63,557 nt of DNA from a virus. The notes under the pieces are model-generated. The model was not told where the DNA came from. It searched no databases and saw nothing but the letters and a program-made list of their open reading frames with translations. The stretch lies in the IMG/VR virus record IMGVR_UViG_3300045988_164395; one strand, written 5' to 3'. The position numbers were made by a program, and so were the translations under genes. Positions 201 to 58,988 of the stretch are shown here, in pieces (position 1 is the first letter of the stretch; each line of letters begins with the position of its first letter).

Positions 201-1394
201 ATGGCAGGGTTATTCATAACAATTGTACCTAATTTAAAGTTAAAAAATGGTAAACATACAGTCCGAATAGCTATCACTCATTCAGGACAGACAAGATATA
301 TACCAACAGACGTAACGATAGATTCGGAAAAAGAAATCAACAAAGGACGCATAGTTAAGCGTCCGGATAAGGATTCTCTGAATATGAAACTCAGAAAACT
401 TCTGAATGTTTACGAAGAAAGGCTGGATAATATACAATATGCAGACTGCCTCTCATGCACGCAACTCGTAAAAATTCTCAAAGGACCTGTAACAGGGGAA
501 AAACATAGGACATTTAAAGACATTGCAGAGGAATATCTTTCACAAATAGATATAGAGGATCGGGCTAAGACATATAAACTATACAAGTTGGCAACAAACA
601 GATATCTCCAGTATGCAGGTGACACAACACTGATGGAGCATATAAATCCAATTCGCATTAATAACTACATCATGACGCTACAGAAGGACAAACTATCTCC
701 AACAAGCATTAATATCTATATCACCTTATTGAAAGTAGTGATAAACTATGCAGTCAAGATGAGATATGTAACATTCGACGTTGATCCGTTCGTAACAGCT
801 AAGATCCCATCAGCAAAAAAAAGGGAAACATTCATAACTGTAGAACAACTCAGAAAGATAAGGGATGCCAAACTTGAAAAGCATAACATGTGCGTAATTC
901 GCGATATCTTTATGCTTACTTATTATCTTGCCGGAATGAATCTTGTAGACATGCTGGACTATGATTTCAGGAATACCGATGAAATATACTATGTACGCAA
1001 AAAGACCAGGCATACTAAAGAAGGTGAGAATGCCGTGAACTTTTCGATTCCTGATGAGGCAAAGCCAATCATACAACGATACATGAATAAGAAATCAGGG
1101 AAACTCATTTTTGGGCGTTATTCCAGCTATGTTAGCTGCTATAATGTTCTCGCAAGGAAGATAAAGGAACTTGCAGAAGTGGGCGGAATTAAGCACTATT
1201 TTACTCTATATTCAGCCCGTAAGTCTTTCGTTCAGCACGGATTCGACCTTGGGATTCCTCTCTCTACACTGGAATACTGCATCGGTCAATCGATGAAAGA
1301 CAGTCGCCCGATATTCAACTATGTATCCATAATGAAGAAACATGCAGACAAAGCAATAAGGGAAATTCTTGATAATTTGAAAGAAAAGCCCTAA
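201..1394 (+). CDS. int: Tyrosine integrase (Bacteroidetes phage-integrase type)
   Basis: 397 aa. The N-terminal arm-like domain (KNGKHTVRIAITHSGQTRYIPT) and C-terminal catalytic region (YSARKSFVQHG...IFNYV) fit a tyrosine recombinase. It sits next to the repeat-rich non-coding junction. Confidence 0.8.
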   Translation: MAGLFITIVPNLKLKNGKHTVRIAITHSGQTRYIPTDVTIDSEKEINKGRIVKRPDKDSLNMKLRKLLNVYEERLDNIQYADCLSCTQLVKILKGPVTGEKHRTFKDIAEEYLSQIDIEDRAKTYKLYKLATNRYLQYAGDTTLMEHINPIRINNYIMTLQKDKLSPTSINIYITLLKVVINYAVKMRYVTFDVDPFVTAKIPSAKKRETFITVEQLRKIRDAKLEKHNMCVIRDIFMLTYYLAGMNLVDMLDYDFRNTDEIYYVRKKTRHTKEGENAVNFSIPDEAKPIIQRYMNKKSGKLIFGRYSSYVSCYNVLARKIKELAEVGGIKHYFTLYSARKSFVQHGFDLGIPLSTLEYCIGQSMKDSRPIFNYVSIMKKHADKAIREILDNLKEKP

Positions 1395-4085: not shown

Positions 4086-5288
4086 TTACAAATAAAAATT
4101 ACAAGATGAGGCTTGAGTTATTACATTATTATTTTTCTTTCTCTTGACCGCCTTCAAGTCTCTTACGATTGTGCTTGATAAAATCTCCGAATAGATTTCT
4201 GTAGTCTTAACTGAGGTGTGACCTAGCAGTCGCTGAACTGTCGTAATCGGGACACCTTGATGAATGAGCAGCGTAGCACAGGTATGACGTGCTGTATGGT
4301 AGGTTATGTGCTTCTTGATCCGAGCCATGCCAGCAATAGCAGACAGAGCCTTATTCACTTCCGAATTACTGCCTAAACTGGCAAACTCTGTTATACAGTA
4401 GCGATCCAGAATAGACAATGCTTTCCCCTCGAATAACAGATGCAACGGAAGGCGCAACTCGATACCTGTTTTGATTGATTTGAAGTGTAGCCACTTCTTA
4501 CCATTTACCTTGATAAAATTTGCAGGTGATAACTGGCAGAAGTCAGAGAATCGCAAACCGACGTAGCAACAGAATAGGAACGCATCCAGCACATGACGCA
4601 ACTTCCTATCGCTAACTTCAAGGTTCTCCAGCTTTTTCAGTTCGTCCGGAGTCAAGAACTCATGCCTTCCCTTTTCCTGCTTTATCTTAAACTTGCGAAA
4701 CGGGTAAGCGTCTGCATGAATATATCCCTGGTTAATGGCTTCGTTGACTAATGTTCTGAGCTGCCTCAAATGCTTTGCCACGGTATTTATTCCGTTACCT
4801 TTTTCCCTAAGATATACCTCGAAGTCCTTCAAGAACGTGTACGTTATATCCTTGAAATCTAGCCCTGGTCTAAACTCCTGCAATACGGTTATGGTGGTAT
4901 ACAGATTCTCCTTTGTACTCTCTCTCCTATCAGAATGTGTAACGTATTCCTTTGCAAAGACAGGAAATGTAACATTAACCGGACGGTTCTTCTTCATTGC
5001 GTCCTTCAGTAAGGATAACGTGGCTGGAACTCCTCTTTTCCATAGAGCCAATTCTATTCCCTGAAGGTATAGAACAAACTCAAACAACATAGAATTTAAA
5101 TCATCAGCTTGCGGATGAACGATAATCTGAGAGGTCCGCTTATCCCAGTGTTCTGGGTGTAAGTAAACATTTGTTTTGAAATATACTTTGCGCTGGTTCA
5201 ATGATGCTTCTACTTGTACGAGTGCTGTTCCTTGCTTATTAAGTTTCTTCTTGCGATTATAGACAAGCCGGTATTTTATCTTATCCAT
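4086..5288 (-). CDS. Tyrosine site-specific recombinase; candidate shufflon invertase
   Basis: 400 aa with RFSD...HTARHT...LGHTSVKTTEIY (R/H-x-x-R/H/Y catalytic pattern). The start codon is 48 bp from the leftmost inversion site. Confidence 0.8.
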   Translation of the reverse strand: MDKIKYRLVYNRKKKLNKQGTALVQVEASLNQRKVYFKTNVYLHPEHWDKRTSQIIVHPQADDLNSMLFEFVLYLQGIELALWKRGVPATLSLLKDAMKKNRPVNVTFPVFAKEYVTHSDRRESTKENLYTTITVLQEFRPGLDFKDITYTFLKDFEVYLREKGNGINTVAKHLRQLRTLVNEAINQGYIHADAYPFRKFKIKQEKGRHEFLTPDELKKLENLEVSDRKLRHVLDAFLFCCYVGLRFSDFCQLSPANFIKVNGKKWLHFKSIKTGIELRLPLHLLFEGKALSILDRYCITEFASLGSNSEVNKALSAIAGMARIKKHITYHTARHTCATLLIHQGVPITTVQRLLGHTSVKTTEIYSEILSSTIVRDLKAVKRKKNNNVITQASSCNFYL

Positions 5289-7124: not shown

Positions 7125-7635
7125 ATTTTGCAATTTCTATGAGTCCACTTGTATCTGTACTTTCTTGCTCCTCTTTTAAGAAGGTCGTATTTTCTAAGCC
7201 TTCTGTATTTGCGAATATGACATAAACAAATGTATAGGCAGGAACGTAAATATACAATGAGAGCATTTGATCTTCTTCTTCTTTGTAATAAAATTTACTT
7301 GCCCGTGAACCGGGACCAATATCGTTTATCCCTCTATAAATAGCTTCCCGTCTATTGACAATAGAAAATGTAAAGAATGTTGTTGGTCTTCCAACACATT
7401 TCTCCCAAGCAAACATACCTAAAGGGTTAATAGCTCCGGATTGTTTTTTCATTATGCCTATTTTATATAATTTATTTTCAGATAAAGGTGCAGTCCATGA
7501 TGCAAGAGGATAATAATAAGGATATTTGCTCGGCATTAATCCTTTACTTTTACTTGTTGCTTCAGGTAGCAGTCCTCCCACAACTGATATAGTTTCCGGA
7601 TCTCTTATTACTTCATTAAAATCTATTGTTTCCAT
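7123..7635 (-). CDS. Expressed tail-tip/receptor-binding protein: constant 18-aa leader plus cassette E
   Basis: It starts with ATG and encodes METIDFNEVIRDPETISV followed by VGGLLPEATSKSKGLM.... It lies 24 nt downstream of the tail fibre gene. Confidence 0.7.
   Translation of the reverse strand: METIDFNEVIRDPETISVVGGLLPEATSKSKGLMPSKYPYYYPLASWTAPLSENKLYKIGIMKKQSGAINPLGMFAWEKCVGRPTTFFTFSIVNRREAIYRGINDIGPGSRASKFYYKEEEDQMLSLYIYVPAYTFVYVIFANTEGLENTTFLKEEQESTDTSGLIEIAK
7565..7581 (-). repeat. Inversion site E in the expressed gene (GTGGGAGGACTGCTACC on the minus strand)
   Basis: Consensus match 18 codons into the only ATG-initiated ORF of the set. Confidence 0.8.
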
Positions 7636-18842: not shown

Positions 18843-21800
18843 AGTCTATTACTCTTATATATCTGATACTGCATATTGTTATAATCCCTGTGCTGCTGCT
18901 TCATTATTTTACCAATATCACTTCTAATGCCATGCATTTCTTTCTTTAATTCAGAATAGTCATTATTCACTATTACAGGAGCGTTACCGGAAGAGGCCAT
19001 AGGAGTTATATTTCCTCCAACATCATTCCAGTTGAACATATCAACATCCGGGTATACTTCAGCACCGCGAGGCAAATCTACTAAAGTAGGAGTATCTGGT
19101 GTAATCCACGGTTTTCCACCATAGACGACAACTTCTTGTTTACCTCCATCCCCGACAATTGCAAGCCCACCAATATGAGCACCGTTCTTGGTTCCCTCCT
19201 TATATGCAGGAATCGGAGTAGCAGCGATGGTAGCTACCTGAACTGCACCCATAGCAGCAACCACACCAGCCATGATAGCACCAAGGATAGGACCAAGTTG
19301 CCATGCCTCCATGATACCACGTGCCGTTGCGATACCGGTCTGTGCAATCTGTACTGCCTTATCCCACTTTGCCTGCTTCTGCTGCAATTCAACTTTTCTC
19401 TTTTCCAGTTCCTCATTCTTTTTTGAGGTCTTATCCTCGGCAGCCCTCTTTCTGGCTTCGGCTTCTTCCTCAGATATTGCACCACTCTCAGCAAGAGCTT
19501 CAATTCTTTCGATATCCGCATTGTATGCATCCTCGTTGGCATCCTGTTCTTTCTCAATCCTGTCAATATCTCCTTCATAAAGAGTAGACATGAGATTGCC
19601 TATATTACTGATTGCCTCACCTGCAACATCCATCCAACGCTGGGCATTCTTCATCCTTTTCTTATATGAGTTTTCCTCTTCATCCTGAACACGTTTTATC
19701 GCAGCAATCTCAGCATCAGCTTCAGCATTCGCTAAATCAGCCTTTGCTTTCTGAAGCTGTTCGGAAAGTTTTTCCCGGTCGTCCTGGCTCATGTTCTCAA
19801 CAGAAAGCTGTTTTTCAATAGATTCAACAGCAGCCTTAGCGGTTTCTAATGAATAACGTTCGGTTATATCAGCCTTCTTTTTCTCGTATTCCTCATCCGA
19901 AACAAGTTTCTTGGCATGCAGCTTTTCCAACTCTTTCAGGTCAGAATTATATTGTGCATTCCTTACAACCTGCTCGGCAGCAGCAGACTTGGAAATCTCA
20001 TCAGCCGAATCAGCTGCATATTCCTCATATATCTTACGTCTTTCAGCCAGGTACTTCTGCTCGATGAGGCTCACGTCAGCACCGTTACTTTCAGCCGCCT
20101 TAATTTCTTCCTGTTTCTGTTTGTCAAGAATTTCAAGGCGGATAGACATTTCTTCCTTACTACCTTCCTCTACAGAAGAAAGGCGGTTTTGAAGATCAAT
20201 GCCAGCACGATTTTTCTCATATTCTTCAGACGCCTTTGTCAATGCATTGTTCATCTCTTCCTGCAAGGACTTCCTCAATGCAATTTCTGCAGACGAATTT
20301 CCTTTTACGGCATCAATCTTTTGCTGGTATCCGTTACGGATTGTAGCCAGTTCTTTCTCGATACCGTCTTTCATCAAGGCAATACGTGATTCTTGCAAGG
20401 ATTTTTCAGCTTCAAGTCTGGCTGTCTTTTCATCAGCAGTTTCGGTACTAACTGTTTTAGTCTTTAATGTAGGGTCCTGATAGCTTTGTAAGAGGTCAAC
20501 CTGCTTGTTAAGACTTGAATATCCACGTAGTGCAGACATTCTAGCCTCCCACGATGATTCAATATCCGCATTTATCTGACTATTGGTCCGGTCAATACCC
20601 AATCCTTGTTTCCAAAAACTTGCGTTCTGATATTCTTCATAATATTTTTTGTTAAGATCAACAGCGTCCTTAAGATTTTTCTCCTCCTCTTGTAGGGCTT
20701 TCTTCATAACGGCAATTCTTTCGTCCTTCGCTTTCTTGAAAGCATTTTCTTCAGAAATACCCTGCTTAATATATTTTTGAGTAGCTATATTGATACGCTC
20801 ATACTGCTTACTGACCTCCTCTTCTCCATATTTTGCGCCATCTGCTCTCGCCTGCTCTTCCTCCCTATTAGAAATCTCTTCTATACTTTCTATTCCTTTA
20901 CGTACTAAGGACAACAAATCTGCATTCATGGATGCGATAGAGGCCTTAACTCTTGCAGCCATACTTTCGAATGCACCACCGGTGGCATCAAACAGTAAAG
21001 ATAATTCGGTAGACAGTCTTTTCTGGCTTTCTATCATATCTTCCTGTGCCTGTCCTAATTCTCCAGTTTCATCTTTTACATCGCTAAGGTTTGTCTTGAT
21101 GTCTTTCAGAGTTCGGATATACTGGAGTCCAGCATCCTCACCAGGTCCACCGAAGATATCAGCCAATGCAGTACCGACAACAGACGCACTATCTGGTAAC
21201 TCATTCAATCGTTCCGATACCATCTGTATAATGTCGAACGTGGTTTTCTGACCTGTTCTCAACTGTTCCTGAACCTTGTCGGCGGATATGCCGATTCCTT
21301 CAAGTGCAGCAGCAGTAGCAGCAGTCATTTCACGAATACGCAAGTTACCTTCCTTGATAACATCCACACCCTTGTCAGAATATATACCTGATTTGGCAGC
21401 CTGAGCAGTTATGGCAATGAATGTTTCGGCACTTATTCCGGCTTCCTTGAAGTATGCAGGATACTCCCTAAGGGTATCCAGAAACTCTCCATTTGCATCA
21501 GCCCCGGCAATGAACCCGTCCTTGATAAGCCTGATTGATTCTTCAGCGGAGATACCAAACTGCTTGGACACAGCATTGGCACCAATCAATACCTCCTTGA
21601 AATCCTTACCATAGAAGTCTGCAATCGCCTGCACTTCCGTACGATAAGCCTTCAGGTCTTCTCCAGACTTCTCCGTGAACTGCTGGGTTAGTCTTGTAGC
21701 CTCTGTTAGTCCCTTATTGTAGTTCACCCACCATCCTACTCCGGCACCGGCAGCACCGACTGCACCAAGACCTAACAGCCACTTATTCTGGAATATCTTG

Positions 21801-57146: not shown

Positions 57147-57339
57147 AGGCTTCCTTTACCAGTTCAGCACGTTTTTTACCATATTGTAATTCGATACAGT
57201 CAATTAATGATTGTTCTATTTTTTCGGGAAGTATCCTTAATGCTTCCCGATTAGACATCTTCATCCCTTTAATTGATAGAGAAAACTCCGTATCGAGAAA
57301 ATTTTCGCATGTAAGCGAAATATTAATTTCCATTTCCAT
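57115..57339 (-). CDS. Hypothetical small protein (start moved to MEMEINISL)
   Basis: The longer ORF runs into the tRNA-like gene. It is convergent with 56823..57146 and overlaps it by 32 nt. Confidence 0.35.
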   Translation of the reverse strand: MEMEINISLTCENFLDTEFSLSIKGMKMSNREALRILPEKIEQSLIDCIELQYGKKRAELVKEAFSQHKCQDSE

Positions 57340-57363
57340 AATTATTGAGTTTACAATAAATTG

Positions 57364-57471
57364 TGGTATCGGCAGGATTCGAACCTGCATGAGCTTTCTG
57401 CTTTGAGTAACCCTTCCGGCTGGGTAAAGCTCAAGTACTCGTCGTGCGTCTACCAGTTCCACCACGATACC
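57364..57471 (-). tRNA. tRNA-like gene 1: type II (Leu/Ser-like) scaffold with an interrupted anticodon arm
   Basis: It has a perfect acceptor GGTATCG/CGATACC, a D-arm GTGGAACTGGTAGAC, and a T-arm GCAGG-TTCGAAT-CCTGC. The GAGTA/TACTC stem encloses 26 nt instead of 7. No CCA is encoded. Confidence 0.55.
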
Positions 57472-57483
57472 AATTTGAAAGCA

Positions 57484-57511
57484 ACCTGACGGCTTTCACA
57501 AGAGGTCAGGT
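57484..57511 (-). ncRNA. Hairpin H1, 5' of tRNA-like 1 (loop carries CTTGTGAAAG)
   Basis: On the plus strand, stem ACCTGAC/GTCAGGT with the 14-nt loop GGCTTTCACAAGAG. Confidence 0.4.
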
Positions 57512-57542
57512 ACATTACACACTTTTCACACAAGAAACACAG

Positions 57543-57612
57543 CGGATGCTACGGGACTCGAACCCGTGACCTTCCTGCAATGCAGGATGTTCTTCCCCTG
57601 AACTAAACACCC
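57543..57612 (-). tRNA. tRNA-like gene 2: canonical acceptor, D and T arms but a 5-nt anticodon loop
   Basis: GGGTGTT/AGCATCC (two G-U pairs), GTTC-AGGGGAA-GAAC, ACGGG-TTCGAGT-CCCGT. The anticodon arm is TCCTG-CATTG-CAGGA. Total length is 70 nt. Confidence 0.5.
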
Positions 57613-57621
57613 AGTAAAAAA

Positions 57622-57651
57622 GTGCAGACGACTTTCACAAGTGGTCTGCAC
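57622..57651 (-). ncRNA. Hairpin H2, 5' of tRNA-like 2 (loop carries CTTGTGAAAG)
   Basis: On the plus strand, stem GTGCAGAC/GTCTGCAC with the 14-nt loop GACTTTCACAAGTG. The stem differs from H1 and the loop is conserved. Confidence 0.4.
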
Positions 57652-57705
57652 TAATCACTAATCAATTTAAAGAACTAACTAAGTAAACCTAACCTTCACA
57701 GGTTA

Positions 57706-57764
57706 ATAGCTTCCATTCCGGTAAGCTCACCCGGACATGTCCTCGCTCGGACACGGAAGGCTAT
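57706..57764 (-). ncRNA. Three-way-junction RNA candidate (T-arm-less tRNA-like fold)
   Basis: On the minus strand, the closing stem ATAGC(C)TTCC...GGAAGCTAT encloses GTCC-GAGCGA-GGAC (a type II D-arm-like hairpin) and TCCGG-N9-CCGGA. Confidence 0.3.
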
Positions 57765-57809
57765 CTTCATGGAATCCAATTTAAAAGTATGAACACACAA
57801 AAAAGTATA

Positions 57810-58079
57810 TCACTTTTTCTTTCTCTTCCTCCTATGGTTAGCACAATGCCTCAATACATCACCACCGTTGCAGAACCATTTACCGTTCTGCCGTGCAGTA
57901 GGTTTATCGGCACGAATATCTCCACGATCAACAAGTGTTTCAAGTTTCCTTTCACTACCTACAATACGGGCTGCCTGAGTCTTGCTTAGCGGAATTTCTT
58001 CCATCGCCAGTAATATATTCTCGAGCAACACATCTGAACTGACCACTATCATAAGTCTGCCATTAAGAGTATACACCAT
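57810..58079 (-). CDS. Small DNA-binding (HTH) protein, possibly excisionase-like
   Basis: LSKTQAARIVGSERKLETLVDRGDI followed by a basic tail RRKRKKK. Confidence 0.4.
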   Translation of the reverse strand: MVYTLNGRLMIVVSSDVLLENILLAMEEIPLSKTQAARIVGSERKLETLVDRGDIRADKPTARQNGKWFCNGGDVLRHCANHRRKRKKK

Positions 58080-58080
58080 A

Positions 58081-58287
58081 TTAACTAACTCGAGTTACAA
58101 CTATAACGCCAGACTGCATATCGGTCTTGATGCTCCATCGAAAGCCCTTAACCCTTTCTTCTGCGAGTCTGTTATACATCGTATTCTCCACAGACCGTTT
58201 CTGAGACAGAGGAAATCTTTCCTGTCCGGAAACAGGCATATTCCTGAGCGTTTCAACTATCGGTTTTTTTTCCATATTTCCTTCCAT
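58081..58287 (-). CDS. Hypothetical small protein
   Basis: 68-aa ORF. Confidence 0.4.
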   Translation of the reverse strand: MEGNMEKKPIVETLRNMPVSGQERFPLSQKRSVENTMYNRLAEERVKGFRWSIKTDMQSGVIVVTRVS

Positions 58288-58439
58288 GTTATGACGTTAG
58301 AACAAACACACAATACAAGGGCGGCAAAGCAGGCTATAGCCCAAGCCCAATTCACAGAACTGCAAGTAAAGGCTCCCCAAAAGAGTCCTGAAACTCCAAG
58401 AGTTACCATGCAGGAGATTATAAATGACATGATATTCAT
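58257..58439 (-). CDS. Small two-TM membrane protein
   Basis: 60 aa with two hydrophobic helices. Confidence 0.4.
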   Translation of the reverse strand: MNIMSFIISCMVTLGVSGLFWGAFTCSSVNWAWAIACFAALVLCVCSNVITWKEIWKKNR

Positions 58440-58543
58440 AATTGTATGATTTTAAGATGCTCCCTCCGGCAGATTCCATCCGCTGCTGCACGCTTTTCGG
58501 AGGGATTTCTTAATTTTGTATTGCAAACTAAAAATTAAGAATC

Positions 58544-58723
58544 ATGAAAAATTTTATTGTCGTATCAGACACCAAAGGAAAATCTTGGTGCATCAACACT
58601 GATGCAATTATCTGCATTGAAGATTTAAGAGGTCAAACAGCTTTTCATCTTAAAGAAGAAAAAGAGCCAATCATCACTAACCTGAAGTTCGAGTCTGTAT
58701 TGGCGATGCTCGATGCTCGTTAA
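58544..58723 (+). CDS. Small ORF (59 aa) missing from the ORF track
   Basis: It runs from ATG at 58544 to TAA at 58721-58723 and encodes MKNFIVVSDTKGKSWCINTDAIICIEDLRGQTAFHLKEEKEPIITNLKFESVLAMLDAR. Confidence 0.35.
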   Translation: MKNFIVVSDTKGKSWCINTDAIICIEDLRGQTAFHLKEEKEPIITNLKFESVLAMLDAR

Positions 58724-58877
58724 ATGTCTGTACCTTACTATAAATTGGGATAGATAGAAATCTTATCTTAAGGATTGTTCTATCTATACCAATACAATCA
58801 GTCAAAACCTTGTTTCCACATTTGATATCACCAACCATTTTGTCAACGATATACTCCTTTTCGATAATTGCTTTCAT
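58677..58877 (-). CDS. Hypothetical small protein (start moved to MKAIIEKEY)
   Basis: The longer ORF runs into tRNA-like 3. It is convergent with 58544..58723 and overlaps it by 47 nt. Confidence 0.35.
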   Translation of the reverse strand: MKAIIEKEYIVDKMVGDIKCGNKVLTDCIGIDRTILKIRFLSIPIYSKVQTFNEHRASPIQTRTSG

Positions 58878-58895
58878 CGTAGTAAAATTTAACTG

Positions 58896-58988
58896 TGCCG
58901 GAACGTGGATTCGAACCACGACTTGTACATCGTATTGCCCTTAGATATGTTTGTATCATGCACCGTTCTACCATTGAACTATTCCGGC
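58896..58988 (-). tRNA. tRNA-like gene 3: class I scaffold with 29 nt between the anticodon-stem halves
   Basis: It has a perfect acceptor GCCGGAA/TTCCGGC, a D-arm GTTC-AATGGTA-GAAC and a T-arm CGTGG-TTCGAAT-CCACG. The GTGCA/TGTAC stem encloses TGATACAAACATATCTAAGGGCAATACGA. Confidence 0.55.

Follow-up and report, generated by a model that had tools for sequence, protein, structure and literature searches.

The stretch of DNA analysed here (the window) is the whole of IMG/VR virus record IMGVR_UViG_3300045988_164395, 63,557 nucleotides (nt) in length. By its gene content, the window reads as a temperate tailed phage or prophage of the Bacteroides type, with two integrases, a terminase, a portal, a major head protein, a ParB-like protein, a helicase, Erf, a RecE-like protein and a cI-like helix-turn-helix repressor. 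Three transfer RNA (tRNA)-shaped genes, all on the minus strand and within positions 57,364–58,988, lie in the early region of that strand, with the switch (~59.8 kb) on one side and the Erf/RecE genes on the other. The three share the top half of a tRNA, consisting of a 7-bp acceptor stem, a D arm with GG and a T loop that reads TTCGAAT or TTCGAGT. None of them encodes CCA, and none has a 5-bp stem closed by a 7-nt anticodon loop with U33 and a purine at position 37. The genes and their principal parts are as follows.

57364–57471, minus strand: gene 1, 108 nt, a tRNA-Leu frame enclosing a core of type A; Rfam tRNA model 34.0 bits, covariance model R1 109.6 bits
57465–57471 paired with 57365–57371, minus strand: acceptor stem of gene 1, 7 bp, with A73 at 57364
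57446–57462, 57389 and 57372–57388, minus strand: D arm (Leu-type), U48 and T arm of gene 1
57543–57612, minus strand: gene 2, 70 nt, class-I tRNA-like; Rfam tRNA model 48.4 bits, fold z-score -2.9
57573–57587, minus strand: anticodon arm of gene 2, TCCTG-CATTG-CAGGA, a 5-bp stem with a 5-nt loop or, alternatively, 6 bp with a triloop
58896–58988, minus strand: gene 3, 93 nt, class-I tRNA-like; Rfam tRNA model 53.2 bits
58930–58958, minus strand: insert of gene 3, 29 nt between GTGCA and TGTAC

In gene 1, the stem halves GAGTA and TACTC are separated by 26 nt, which include CTTGAGC and the sequence ACCC-N8-GGGT. The coordinates, lengths, stem halves and inserts of the three genes, and the lack of an encoded CCA, had been described in an initial annotation made from the sequence, and all were confirmed on re-reading. 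The claim of that annotation that these are tRNA scaffolds without a normal anticodon arm also holds: the full-model matches of all three genes to the Rfam tRNA family RF00005 exceed its gathering score of 29, that of gene 1 appearing with permissive filters only, and the alignment skips the anticodon region in each gene. In the Rfam scan of genes 1–3, tRNA was the sole family matched, and no riboswitch or aptamer family was among the matches. The proposed ARAGORN search gave a mixed picture, as gene 2 was called Asn (ATT) and gene 3 Cys (ACA), both with implausible anticodons, and gene 1 was missed; no canonical tRNA was found by ARAGORN in the window. The 29-nt loop of gene 3 contains no U33-NNN-R37 in register. 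Copies of gene 1 were found in at least 62 viral contigs, and copies of genes 2 and 3 in at least 12 independent contigs; because of this recurrence, the three are not chance matches.

Selection and covariation in gene 1

When a 3.5-kb stretch served as the query, gene 1 was the only part matched. The cultured Bacteroides phage BS-TP2 (PQ571275, with gene 1 at 19549–19660) and one gut-virome clone have it at 97% identity, with flanks unrelated to those in the window, and the gene is unannotated there. A scan of viral contigs with the D and T arms fixed recovered the same 56-nt middle in 58 contigs, a count that later rose to at least 62 for core type A. These contigs span at least two unrelated phage lineages, ~47 being BS-TP2-like and ~9 window-like. 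The neighbours of gene 1 are a DUF2303 gene and NinG/Rap in the former, while in the latter it lies upstream of Erf; a helicase, an integrase, a replication-O fragment, HicB and a DUF2693 protein are the only proteins common to both lineages. Within the BS-TP2-like lineage (43 contigs, 16 haplotypes), a single column of the 108 in gene 1 is polymorphic, versus 8–13 per 54 nt of flanking coding DNA, and the acceptor variants comprise G.U intermediates and one double compensatory change. Gene 1 is under strong purifying selection and is no decaying tRNA. Its frame with a free middle had no match in 185,579 species-representative genomes. An origin as a captured host tRNA or as a copy of an att site was rejected on the strength of this result, of the complete self-paired frame and of conservation that stops at the tRNA ends. 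In L013, a more distant relative of the window phage, gene 1 is present at 96% identity, gene 3 is absent and the slot of gene 2 (~5000–5100) holds a truncated remnant of its 5' half.

The core of gene 1 is built from the following elements, listed in the order in which they are transcribed.

57436–57440, minus strand: 5' strand of helix S1, GAGTA, after the conserved spacer A-CGAC (57441–57445)
57426–57433, minus strand: 5' strand of helix S2, TGAGCTTT, paired with 57390–57397, in the region earlier taken for an anticodon loop
57410–57425, minus strand: hairpin c, ACCC-AGCCGGAA-GGGT, between the 5' strand of S2 and the 3' strand of S1
57398–57409, minus strand: 3' strand of S1, TACTC (57405–57409), and the single-stranded segment L3, AAAGCAG (57398–57404)
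57390–57397, minus strand: 3' strand of S2, AAAGCTCA, ending 1 nt before the T stem, where the 3' strand of a variable arm would sit

Two distant homologues of gene 1, L101 (acceptor GGAGAAG) and L277 (acceptor AGTGAGG, with a 6-bp T stem), share this layout, which runs A26-CGAY, GAGTA, CT(G), an 8-nt strand, a hairpin, TACTC, 7 nt ending in CAG, a second 8-nt strand and 1–4 nt before the T stem. Searches for further cores of this type, by three motif scans of IMG/VR and by a covariance model over ~1.8 Mb of loci, returned only L101 and L277. Comparison of homologues for covariation inside the insert, as advised in the initial annotation, gave a positive answer, since S2 and hairpin c both covary across the three lineages. 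The strands of S2 are TGAGCTTT/AAAGCTCA in gene 1, GTTGTAAT/ATTACAGC in L101 and GTAATCAC/GTGATTAC in L277; 8 of 8 pairs form in each, both sides vary at every one of the 8 pairs, and slid registers yield 1–5 of 8. The stem of hairpin c reads ACCC/GGGT, TCGC/GCGA and ACG/CGT, with covariation at 2 of 4 pairs, and its 8-nt loop, AGCCGGAA, is identical in gene 1 and L277. Across the three-lineage alignment, 98.4% of the cells are paired in the true register versus 28–46% in slid ones. Two-sided pair changes number 14, against 5.8 ± 1.7 in shuffles, and none of 500 shuffles reaches 14. These pair statistics come from a register-preserving, N-padded alignment made by hand, as MAFFT misplaced the gaps. 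Helix S2 and hairpin c are demonstrated elements of the gene 1 core.

Because S2 covaries, CTTGAGC is to be read as L1 followed by the 5' strand of S2, and it forms no anticodon loop. Position 57433, the first pair of S2, is T-A in the window, G.A in the common gut allele and G-C in L101 and L277. Its T/G polymorphism was considered as a wobble change between UGA and GGA (Ser), a reading that was rejected as the position is S2 pair 1. Both strands of S1 (GAGTA and TACTC) read the same in gene 1, L101 and L277, and L3 is conserved while the neighbouring helices covary, with TTACTCAAARCAG kept in gene 1 and L101 and CAG in all three lineages. Pairing of S1 would cross S2, in the order S1-5', S2-5', S1-3', S2-3', to give an H-type pseudoknot with hairpin c in one of its loops, and S2 and the covarying hairpin probably adopt this fold. 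Gene 1 also contains the leucine identity set (A73, A15, U48 and GAACTGGTAGA), which by sequence features only makes it a candidate substrate of leucyl-tRNA synthetase (LeuRS).

Two further observations concern gene 1. The hairpin c loop AGCCGGAA (57414–57421) includes GCCGGAA, which is also the 5' acceptor strand of gene 3 (58982–58988) and is complementary to the 3' acceptor strand of gene 3, TTCCGGC (58897–58903); several chance 7-mer matches are expected per 63 kb, and L277 carries the same loop though no gene 3 is known there. A reading frame on the minus strand (57339–57390) has its ATG at the T stem of gene 1, is in frame with a GTG at 57465 and enters a small open reading frame (ORF) starting at ~57339. 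This run from gene 1 into the downstream ORF is probably a coincidence.

Genes 2 and 3 and a wider family of Leu-type frames

Genes 2 and 3 themselves are confined to the window-like clade. The alleles of gene 2 are compatible with its structure, as T6.G67 is replaced by C6-G67 and R57 is kept; among its relatives, L080 has a 1-nt stem deletion, L063 an allele with an A.C mismatch and L013 the 5' half only. A diverged relative of gene 2 in the BS-TP2-like L108/L169 has an arm of the same 5-bp and 5-nt form, TCCTG-CATGT-CAGGA, and an acceptor stem in which four pairs are altered on both sides. When it is aligned with gene 2, 97.6% of the cells are paired, versus 42–50% in slid registers. The short arm is a conserved feature of gene 2, because it is kept in a second lineage whose acceptor covaries. 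Among genes 1–3, the pair G3.U70 occurs in gene 2 only, and the idea of gene 2 as a mimic of alanine identity was dropped, the homologue in L108/L169 having A3-U70 instead.

Among 12 contigs, gene 3 occurs as three alleles, whose inserts measure 29, 30 and 33 nt. All three alleles share an unchanged frame and an unchanged 17-nt 3' end of the insert (58930–58946, ATCTAAGGGCAATACGA), the 5' part of the insert varies by slippage-like indels, and on the sequences compared gene 3 is the less constrained. In L274 and L275, unrelated DNA lies directly 3' of gene 3, starting after A73-C74; gene 3 therefore marks a mosaic or recombination boundary. The insert motif ATATCTAAGG(G)CAAT (58933–58948) recurs in the core of L217/L233, an unrelated Leu-type scaffold (AGTCAGG). 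It is displayed in a large loop on a 5-bp stem in both settings, with a rough chance estimate of ~1e-3. A 59-residue ORF on the opposite strand (58544–58723, plus strand) lies between gene 3 and the minus-strand ORFs toward gene 2, so that gene 3 may not be co-transcribed with genes 2 and 1.

The frame of gene 1 belongs to a wider family. The same D- and T-arm pattern had 14 hits in cellular genomes, 12 of them canonical tRNA-Leu(UAA), versus 75 in viral contigs, 73 of which have non-canonical, over-long middles. The two non-canonical cellular hits are L087 1918–2015, in an Agriterribacter metagenome-assembled genome (MAG), and L095 1403–1569, in a Pirellulaceae MAG. With the T stem relaxed, and among the matches listed, at least 120 viral contigs have an over-long middle versus 72 of canonical length, and a canonical anticodon arm is present in 19 of the 163 distinct sequences; in the collection of distinct intact Leu-type scaffolds, it is present in 24 of 171. 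A census was drawn up of 142 non-redundant, non-canonical Leu frames from IMG/VR with intact acceptor and T stems. Elements that the search patterns did not set are retained in them: U48 in 140 (99%), A73 in 121 (85%) and a fully paired acceptor in 132 (93%), along with U8-G9 in 99% and U(-1) in 80%. E. coli LeuRS requires A73, A15-U48, G18G19/A20a and the D/T tertiary pairs, the anticodon and the variable arm being dispensable, and a tRNA-Leu that lacks both of these arms is still charged (PMC9976931).

The most uniform set of frames, the AGTCAGG family, has an identical acceptor (AGTCAGG/CCTGACT) in 60 contigs, enclosing 53 distinct cores that fall into 47 unrelated clusters. The flanks of this family are non-homologous; apart from a conserved U(-1), conservation does not extend past the exact ends of the tRNA. 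According to covariance model R1, many phages hold arrays of 2–4 such genes, with one frame and differing cores. Arrays of three to four genes lie at L177 100–912, L191 1691–2308, L165 9774–10678, L102 2669–4694 and L111 1520–2350; their frames are mostly AGTCAGG...CCTGACTA, and the spacing is ~100–600 nt, often free of ORFs between the genes. Anchored pseudoknots in the cores have a mean score of 16.1 versus 12.2 after shuffling, and 22% of the cores reach p<=0.05. Often, the second helix of these pseudoknots ends 2 nt before the T stem, and the unrelated GGAGAAA family has the same interleaved topology of complementarity. No motif common to the cores and no remnant of a Leu anticodon-loop heptamer was found to be enriched in them.

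Four core types occur at the gene 1 slot.

Core type A (gene 1): 57 nt including A26, at least 62 contigs
Core type B: 53 nt, 12 contigs
Core type C: 60 nt, 6 contigs
Core type D: 102 nt, 1 contig

These four unrelated cores are found within an identical GGTATCG frame, preceded by identical upstream sequence, in closely related phages, and types A, B and C are each found at that slot in BS-TP2-like as well as window-like phages. With a constant frame and types A–D at one slot, the core behaves as an exchangeable cassette, the swap presumably taking place by recombination inside the shared frame. The family of gene 1 is apparently large, mostly phage-borne, modular and previously undescribed. 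The literature search found no description of anticodon-less Leu frames, of exchangeable cores or of such arrays, and a passage of an IMG/VR survey mentions generic "tRNA or tRNA-like" candidates (PMC10690425).

Hairpins precede two of the genes, both read from the sequence.

57485–57510, minus strand: hairpin CCTGAC-loop-GTCAGG with TTGTGAAA in its loop, directly upstream of gene 1
57616–57651, minus strand: hairpin GTGCAGAC...GTCTGCAC with a T-run and a TTGTGAAA loop, directly upstream of gene 2

A similar hairpin and T-run with the TTGTGAAA loop motif precedes the gene 1 homologue in L101 (~7408–7445). The distance from hairpin to gene is 5–13 nt for gene 1, gene 2 and the L101 homologue, the latter two also having a T-run. 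The one before gene 2 looks like an intrinsic terminator; as a group, the hairpins could be terminators or attenuators, protectors of the 3' end that RNase P leaves, or they could belong to the functional unit itself. A scan for sigma-70 promoters and terminators was set aside as uninformative for a Bacteroides-type host. Elsewhere in the window, two integrase-like genes lie at 201–1394 (plus strand) and 4086–5288 (minus strand). The product of the second has 74% protein identity to gp3 of BS-TP2, the phages being otherwise unrelated, and the shared integrase may reflect a common integration module.

Proposed function and rival explanations

The best guess at function, held with roughly even confidence, is that genes 1–3 encode tRNA mimics that do not decode, mature through the tRNA machinery and engage tRNA-binding host factors, being possibly aimed at those that target tRNAs. 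The option of a tRNA mimic with another role, one of those left by the initial annotation, fits genuine tRNA-shaped genes that have no normal anticodon arm. The three are co-directional early genes that follow the cro-like side of the switch and precede Erf/RecE. Longer transcripts would probably be cut to give the RNAs, through the action of RNase P (5' end), a 3' nuclease and the CCA-adding enzyme; an intact acceptor stem, D arm and T arm, along with intact elbow contacts, makes such processing plausible. The anticodon end would be swapped for a distinct module in each gene: in gene 1, a 56-nt core, probably pseudoknotted, that combines an 8-bp helix with a hairpin and conserved single strands; in gene 2, a short closed hairpin; in gene 3, a large loop with a conserved 17-nt segment. 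The constant Leu frame retains A73, A15-U48, G18G19 and the T loop, which would answer the needs of LeuRS and of the L-shape. This anatomy predicts an RNA that is accepted by RNase P, 3' nucleases, the CCA-adding enzyme and probably LeuRS, and that reads no codon. The frame would give the RNA the look of a tRNA to host proteins, and the core would supply specificity or resistance, the likeliest targets being defence nucleases that cut anticodon or variable arms. Such nucleases cut the variable loop and the anticodon arm, and phage tRNAs serve as resistant copies or decoys against tRNA-targeting defences (PMC13096335, PMC10264068, PMC11555353).

A wider proposal, put forward tentatively, is that of a phage RNA platform in which the Leu frame is matured and perhaps charged, while the exchangeable cores are effectors or specificity modules in conflicts between phage and host or between phages. 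The cores would be shuffled by recombination, and gene 1 would be the most widespread gut-phage allele.

Several points count against the proposal of tRNA mimics. Its functional layer, from expression and processing to charging and binding, is wholly a prediction, and a pure decoy would have no obvious need for a sequence-conserved core. The structure of gene 1 is based on three independent lineages and a hand-made alignment, and its pseudoknot is one that we infer, S1 invariance neither supporting nor contradicting it; across the class, the enrichment of anchored pseudoknots is modest. The contrast between viral and cellular hits comes from a single sequence pattern, and IMG/VR includes prophages. 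A linked protein partner is also missing: among the neighbours of gene 1, no ligase, endonuclease, reverse transcriptase or transferase is common to both phage lineages, and the AGTCAGG family has no neighbour gene in common and no linked protein. The conservation of gene 3 does not exceed that of its near flanks, and gene 2 decays in some relatives (the L080 deletion and the L013 remnant).

The close rival is a tRNA scaffold for cargo, in which the core would be the active part, as an aptamer or regulatory RNA, and the frame would give RNase P/RNase Z processing and nuclease protection, with no tRNA-binding host factor targeted. It is possible, if somewhat doubtful. The single strands of type A are conserved in sequence in distant homologues while the helices covary, differing cores occupy one frame both in arrays and at one locus, and conservation halts at the tRNA boundaries, all as expected of cargo in a protective frame. 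The frame itself speaks against this view, as A73 (85%) and the exact Leu D loop are kept beyond the needs of stability, and identical acceptors in very different phages suggest that the frame is recognized in a sequence-specific way. In addition, the Rfam scan gave no riboswitch or aptamer match, and the cores have no excess of complementarity to their own contig.

The remaining readings rank lower. An unlikely one is operon punctuation, whereby the tRNA-like structures would be RNase P/RNase Z cleavage sites and nothing else, segmenting an early transcript into parts of differing stability. RNase P and RNase Z do not need an anticodon arm. Gene 1 lies between co-directional ORFs with gaps of 16–25 nt in BS-TP2 and is likewise wedged in the window, U(-1) is conserved, and the hairpins just upstream of genes 1 and 2 could shield a new 3' end. 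What punctuation leaves unexplained is the selection and covariation in the gene 1 core, the alternative structured cores at one slot and the ORF-free arrays of three to four genes.

Slightly less probable still is that the genes are decaying tRNA pseudogenes whose anticodon regions have been damaged by indels. This reading concerns mainly gene 3 and, less so, gene 2, both of which are known from one phage clade at 90–100% identity; the slippage-like indels and flank-level conservation of gene 3 would suit it, as would the deletion, mismatch and remnant alleles of gene 2. Selection and covariation exclude it for gene 1. The initial annotation had named pseudogenes with unconserved inserts as an outcome that would count against its proposal; the insert of gene 1 is selected and covaries, and the arm of gene 2 is kept in a second lineage with a covarying acceptor. 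Moreover, the damage in genes 1–3 and in the 142 scaffolds is limited to the anticodon/variable region, where random decay would give a different picture, and the frame and 3' 17 nt of gene 3 are invariant over three alleles and 12 contigs, two of them with unrelated downstream DNA.

It is very improbable that the genes encode RNase P-processed antisense RNAs for immunity or regulation, like C4 of P1/P7 or CI of P4, with core types as heteroimmunity alleles. C4 and CI RNAs are tRNA-like substrates of RNase P, and alternative cores do occur at one slot in related temperate phages, in an early region near the repressor switch. The complementarity of cores to their own contig averages 10.15 nt versus 9.86 nt, which is no excess, and no type-specific complementary sites lie within 6 kb on each side, both being weak tests for short loop-loop contacts of up to 8 nt. 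No C4 match was found with Rfam, and many carriers look lytic and hold arrays.

Least credible is that the three are functional decoding tRNAs whose short introns are excised by a bacterial or phage splicing activity of a new kind. A 19-nt excision from gene 1 does yield GAGTA-CTTGAGC-TACTC with U33 and G37, the ARAGORN intron search proposes anticodons in many scaffolds, and CTTAAAA is present in a few cores. Every single contiguous excision was tried in gene 1, gene 3 and 17 related over-long scaffolds, and under strict tRNA geometry (5-bp stem, 7-nt loop, U33, R37) not one of them gave a solution. When 0–5 extra nt were allowed after position 26, some sequences, gene 1 included, could be solved, no more commonly than shuffles (15–68%). 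The statement in the initial annotation that simple excision restores no U33-R37 loop thus stands for strict geometry and fails for gene 1 in the relaxed sense, the 19-nt removal leaving four spare nt (CGAC) after position 26. The unknown short-intron mechanism that it had also listed finds no support: the would-be loop of gene 1 is paired in the covarying S2, where T/G is a compensatory change; hand inspection of genes 1 and 3 found no bulge-helix-bulge (BHB) motif (helix-bulge(3)-helix(4)-bulge(3)); the loop of gene 2 is too short for any excision; Leu anticodon-loop heptamers are unenriched in the cores; and no ligase or endonuclease is linked. Its exclusion of group I introns was correct, as the 19–29-nt inserts are about ten-fold too short and Rfam gave no group I match.

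Phage "tRNA genes" are usually read as decoders, which compensate for codon usage or replace tRNAs cut by defences. The present analysis suggests that a sizeable share of the Leu-type ones in viral contigs cannot decode, and that the non-canonical scaffolds, which are the majority of the 171 collected, are maintained by selection. Because ARAGORN misses these scaffolds or gives them spurious anticodons, they are invisible or mislabelled in annotations, as with the copy in BS-TP2. If the family is real, it would form a new class of phage noncoding RNA and a natural counterpart of the engineered tRNA scaffold, and its allele-like exchangeable cores would be what one expects to see at an arms-race locus. 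A cultured phage–host pair that carries gene 1, Bacteroides phage BS-TP2 on B. salyersiae BG8, puts the question within direct reach of experiment.

Comparison with known systems

Archaeal tRNAs with BHB introns and bacterial tRNAs with group I introns resemble the genes described here in having extra sequence inside the anticodon arm. Group I introns, however, are at least 200 nt long versus 19–29 nt here, no BHB is present, the host is bacterial, and no splicing endonuclease was found in the window.

Transfer-messenger RNA (tmRNA) is likewise an acceptor and T-arm frame without an anticodon arm, with pseudoknots in its body, and is chargeable without an anticodon. It differs in its length of ~260–400 nt, its tag ORF, its alanine identity through G3.U70 and its use of SmpB, whereas a Leu-type frame and a complete D arm are found here. 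ARAGORN found no tmRNA in the window, no tag frame is evident, and the Rfam permuted-tmRNA model gave a sub-threshold 13.8 bits.

The bacterial Y RNA-like YrlA is a modular noncoding RNA of ~100 nt with a tRNA-like elbow, and it is present in some phages; its ends form a Ro60-binding helix and its tRNA-like part is internal, unlike the 7-bp acceptor and discriminator that end the RNAs here (PMC4201824). No YrlA match was obtained with Rfam at E<=10, and no rsr-like gene is among the neighbours.

The C4 (P1/P7) and CI (P4) RNAs are small phage RNAs freed by RNase P, with specificity alleles that differ among related phages, as the core types do at the gene 1 slot. They lack a full cloverleaf and act through loops complementary to a nearby target, a complementarity that was not found here.

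In plant mitochondrial t-elements (PMC1920247), the MALAT1 mascRNA and engineered tRNA scaffolds, the top half of a tRNA provides recognition by RNase P/RNase Z and stability, and the anticodon region is free or carries cargo. The t-elements and mascRNA are eukaryotic or organellar and the engineered scaffold is a laboratory design, whereas the present RNAs are a natural phage family with selected, covarying cores.

A further likeness is to phage tRNAs that escape or soak up tRNA-targeting defences, such as the T5 tRNA-Tyr versus retron-Eco7/PtuAB and Septu, and the tRNAs of mycobacteriophages, which are also phage-encoded and changed in the regions that nucleases cut; a "decoy or supplement" role has been proposed explicitly for them (PMC10264068, PMC11555353, PMC13096335). 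Those tRNAs decode, through a 7-nt loop with a real anticodon, whereas the RNAs described here cannot, with arm replacements of 20–100 nt and exchangeable cores. The known kind to which genes 1–3 come closest is that of tRNA mimics, and the new element would be a fixed frame with an exchangeable core.

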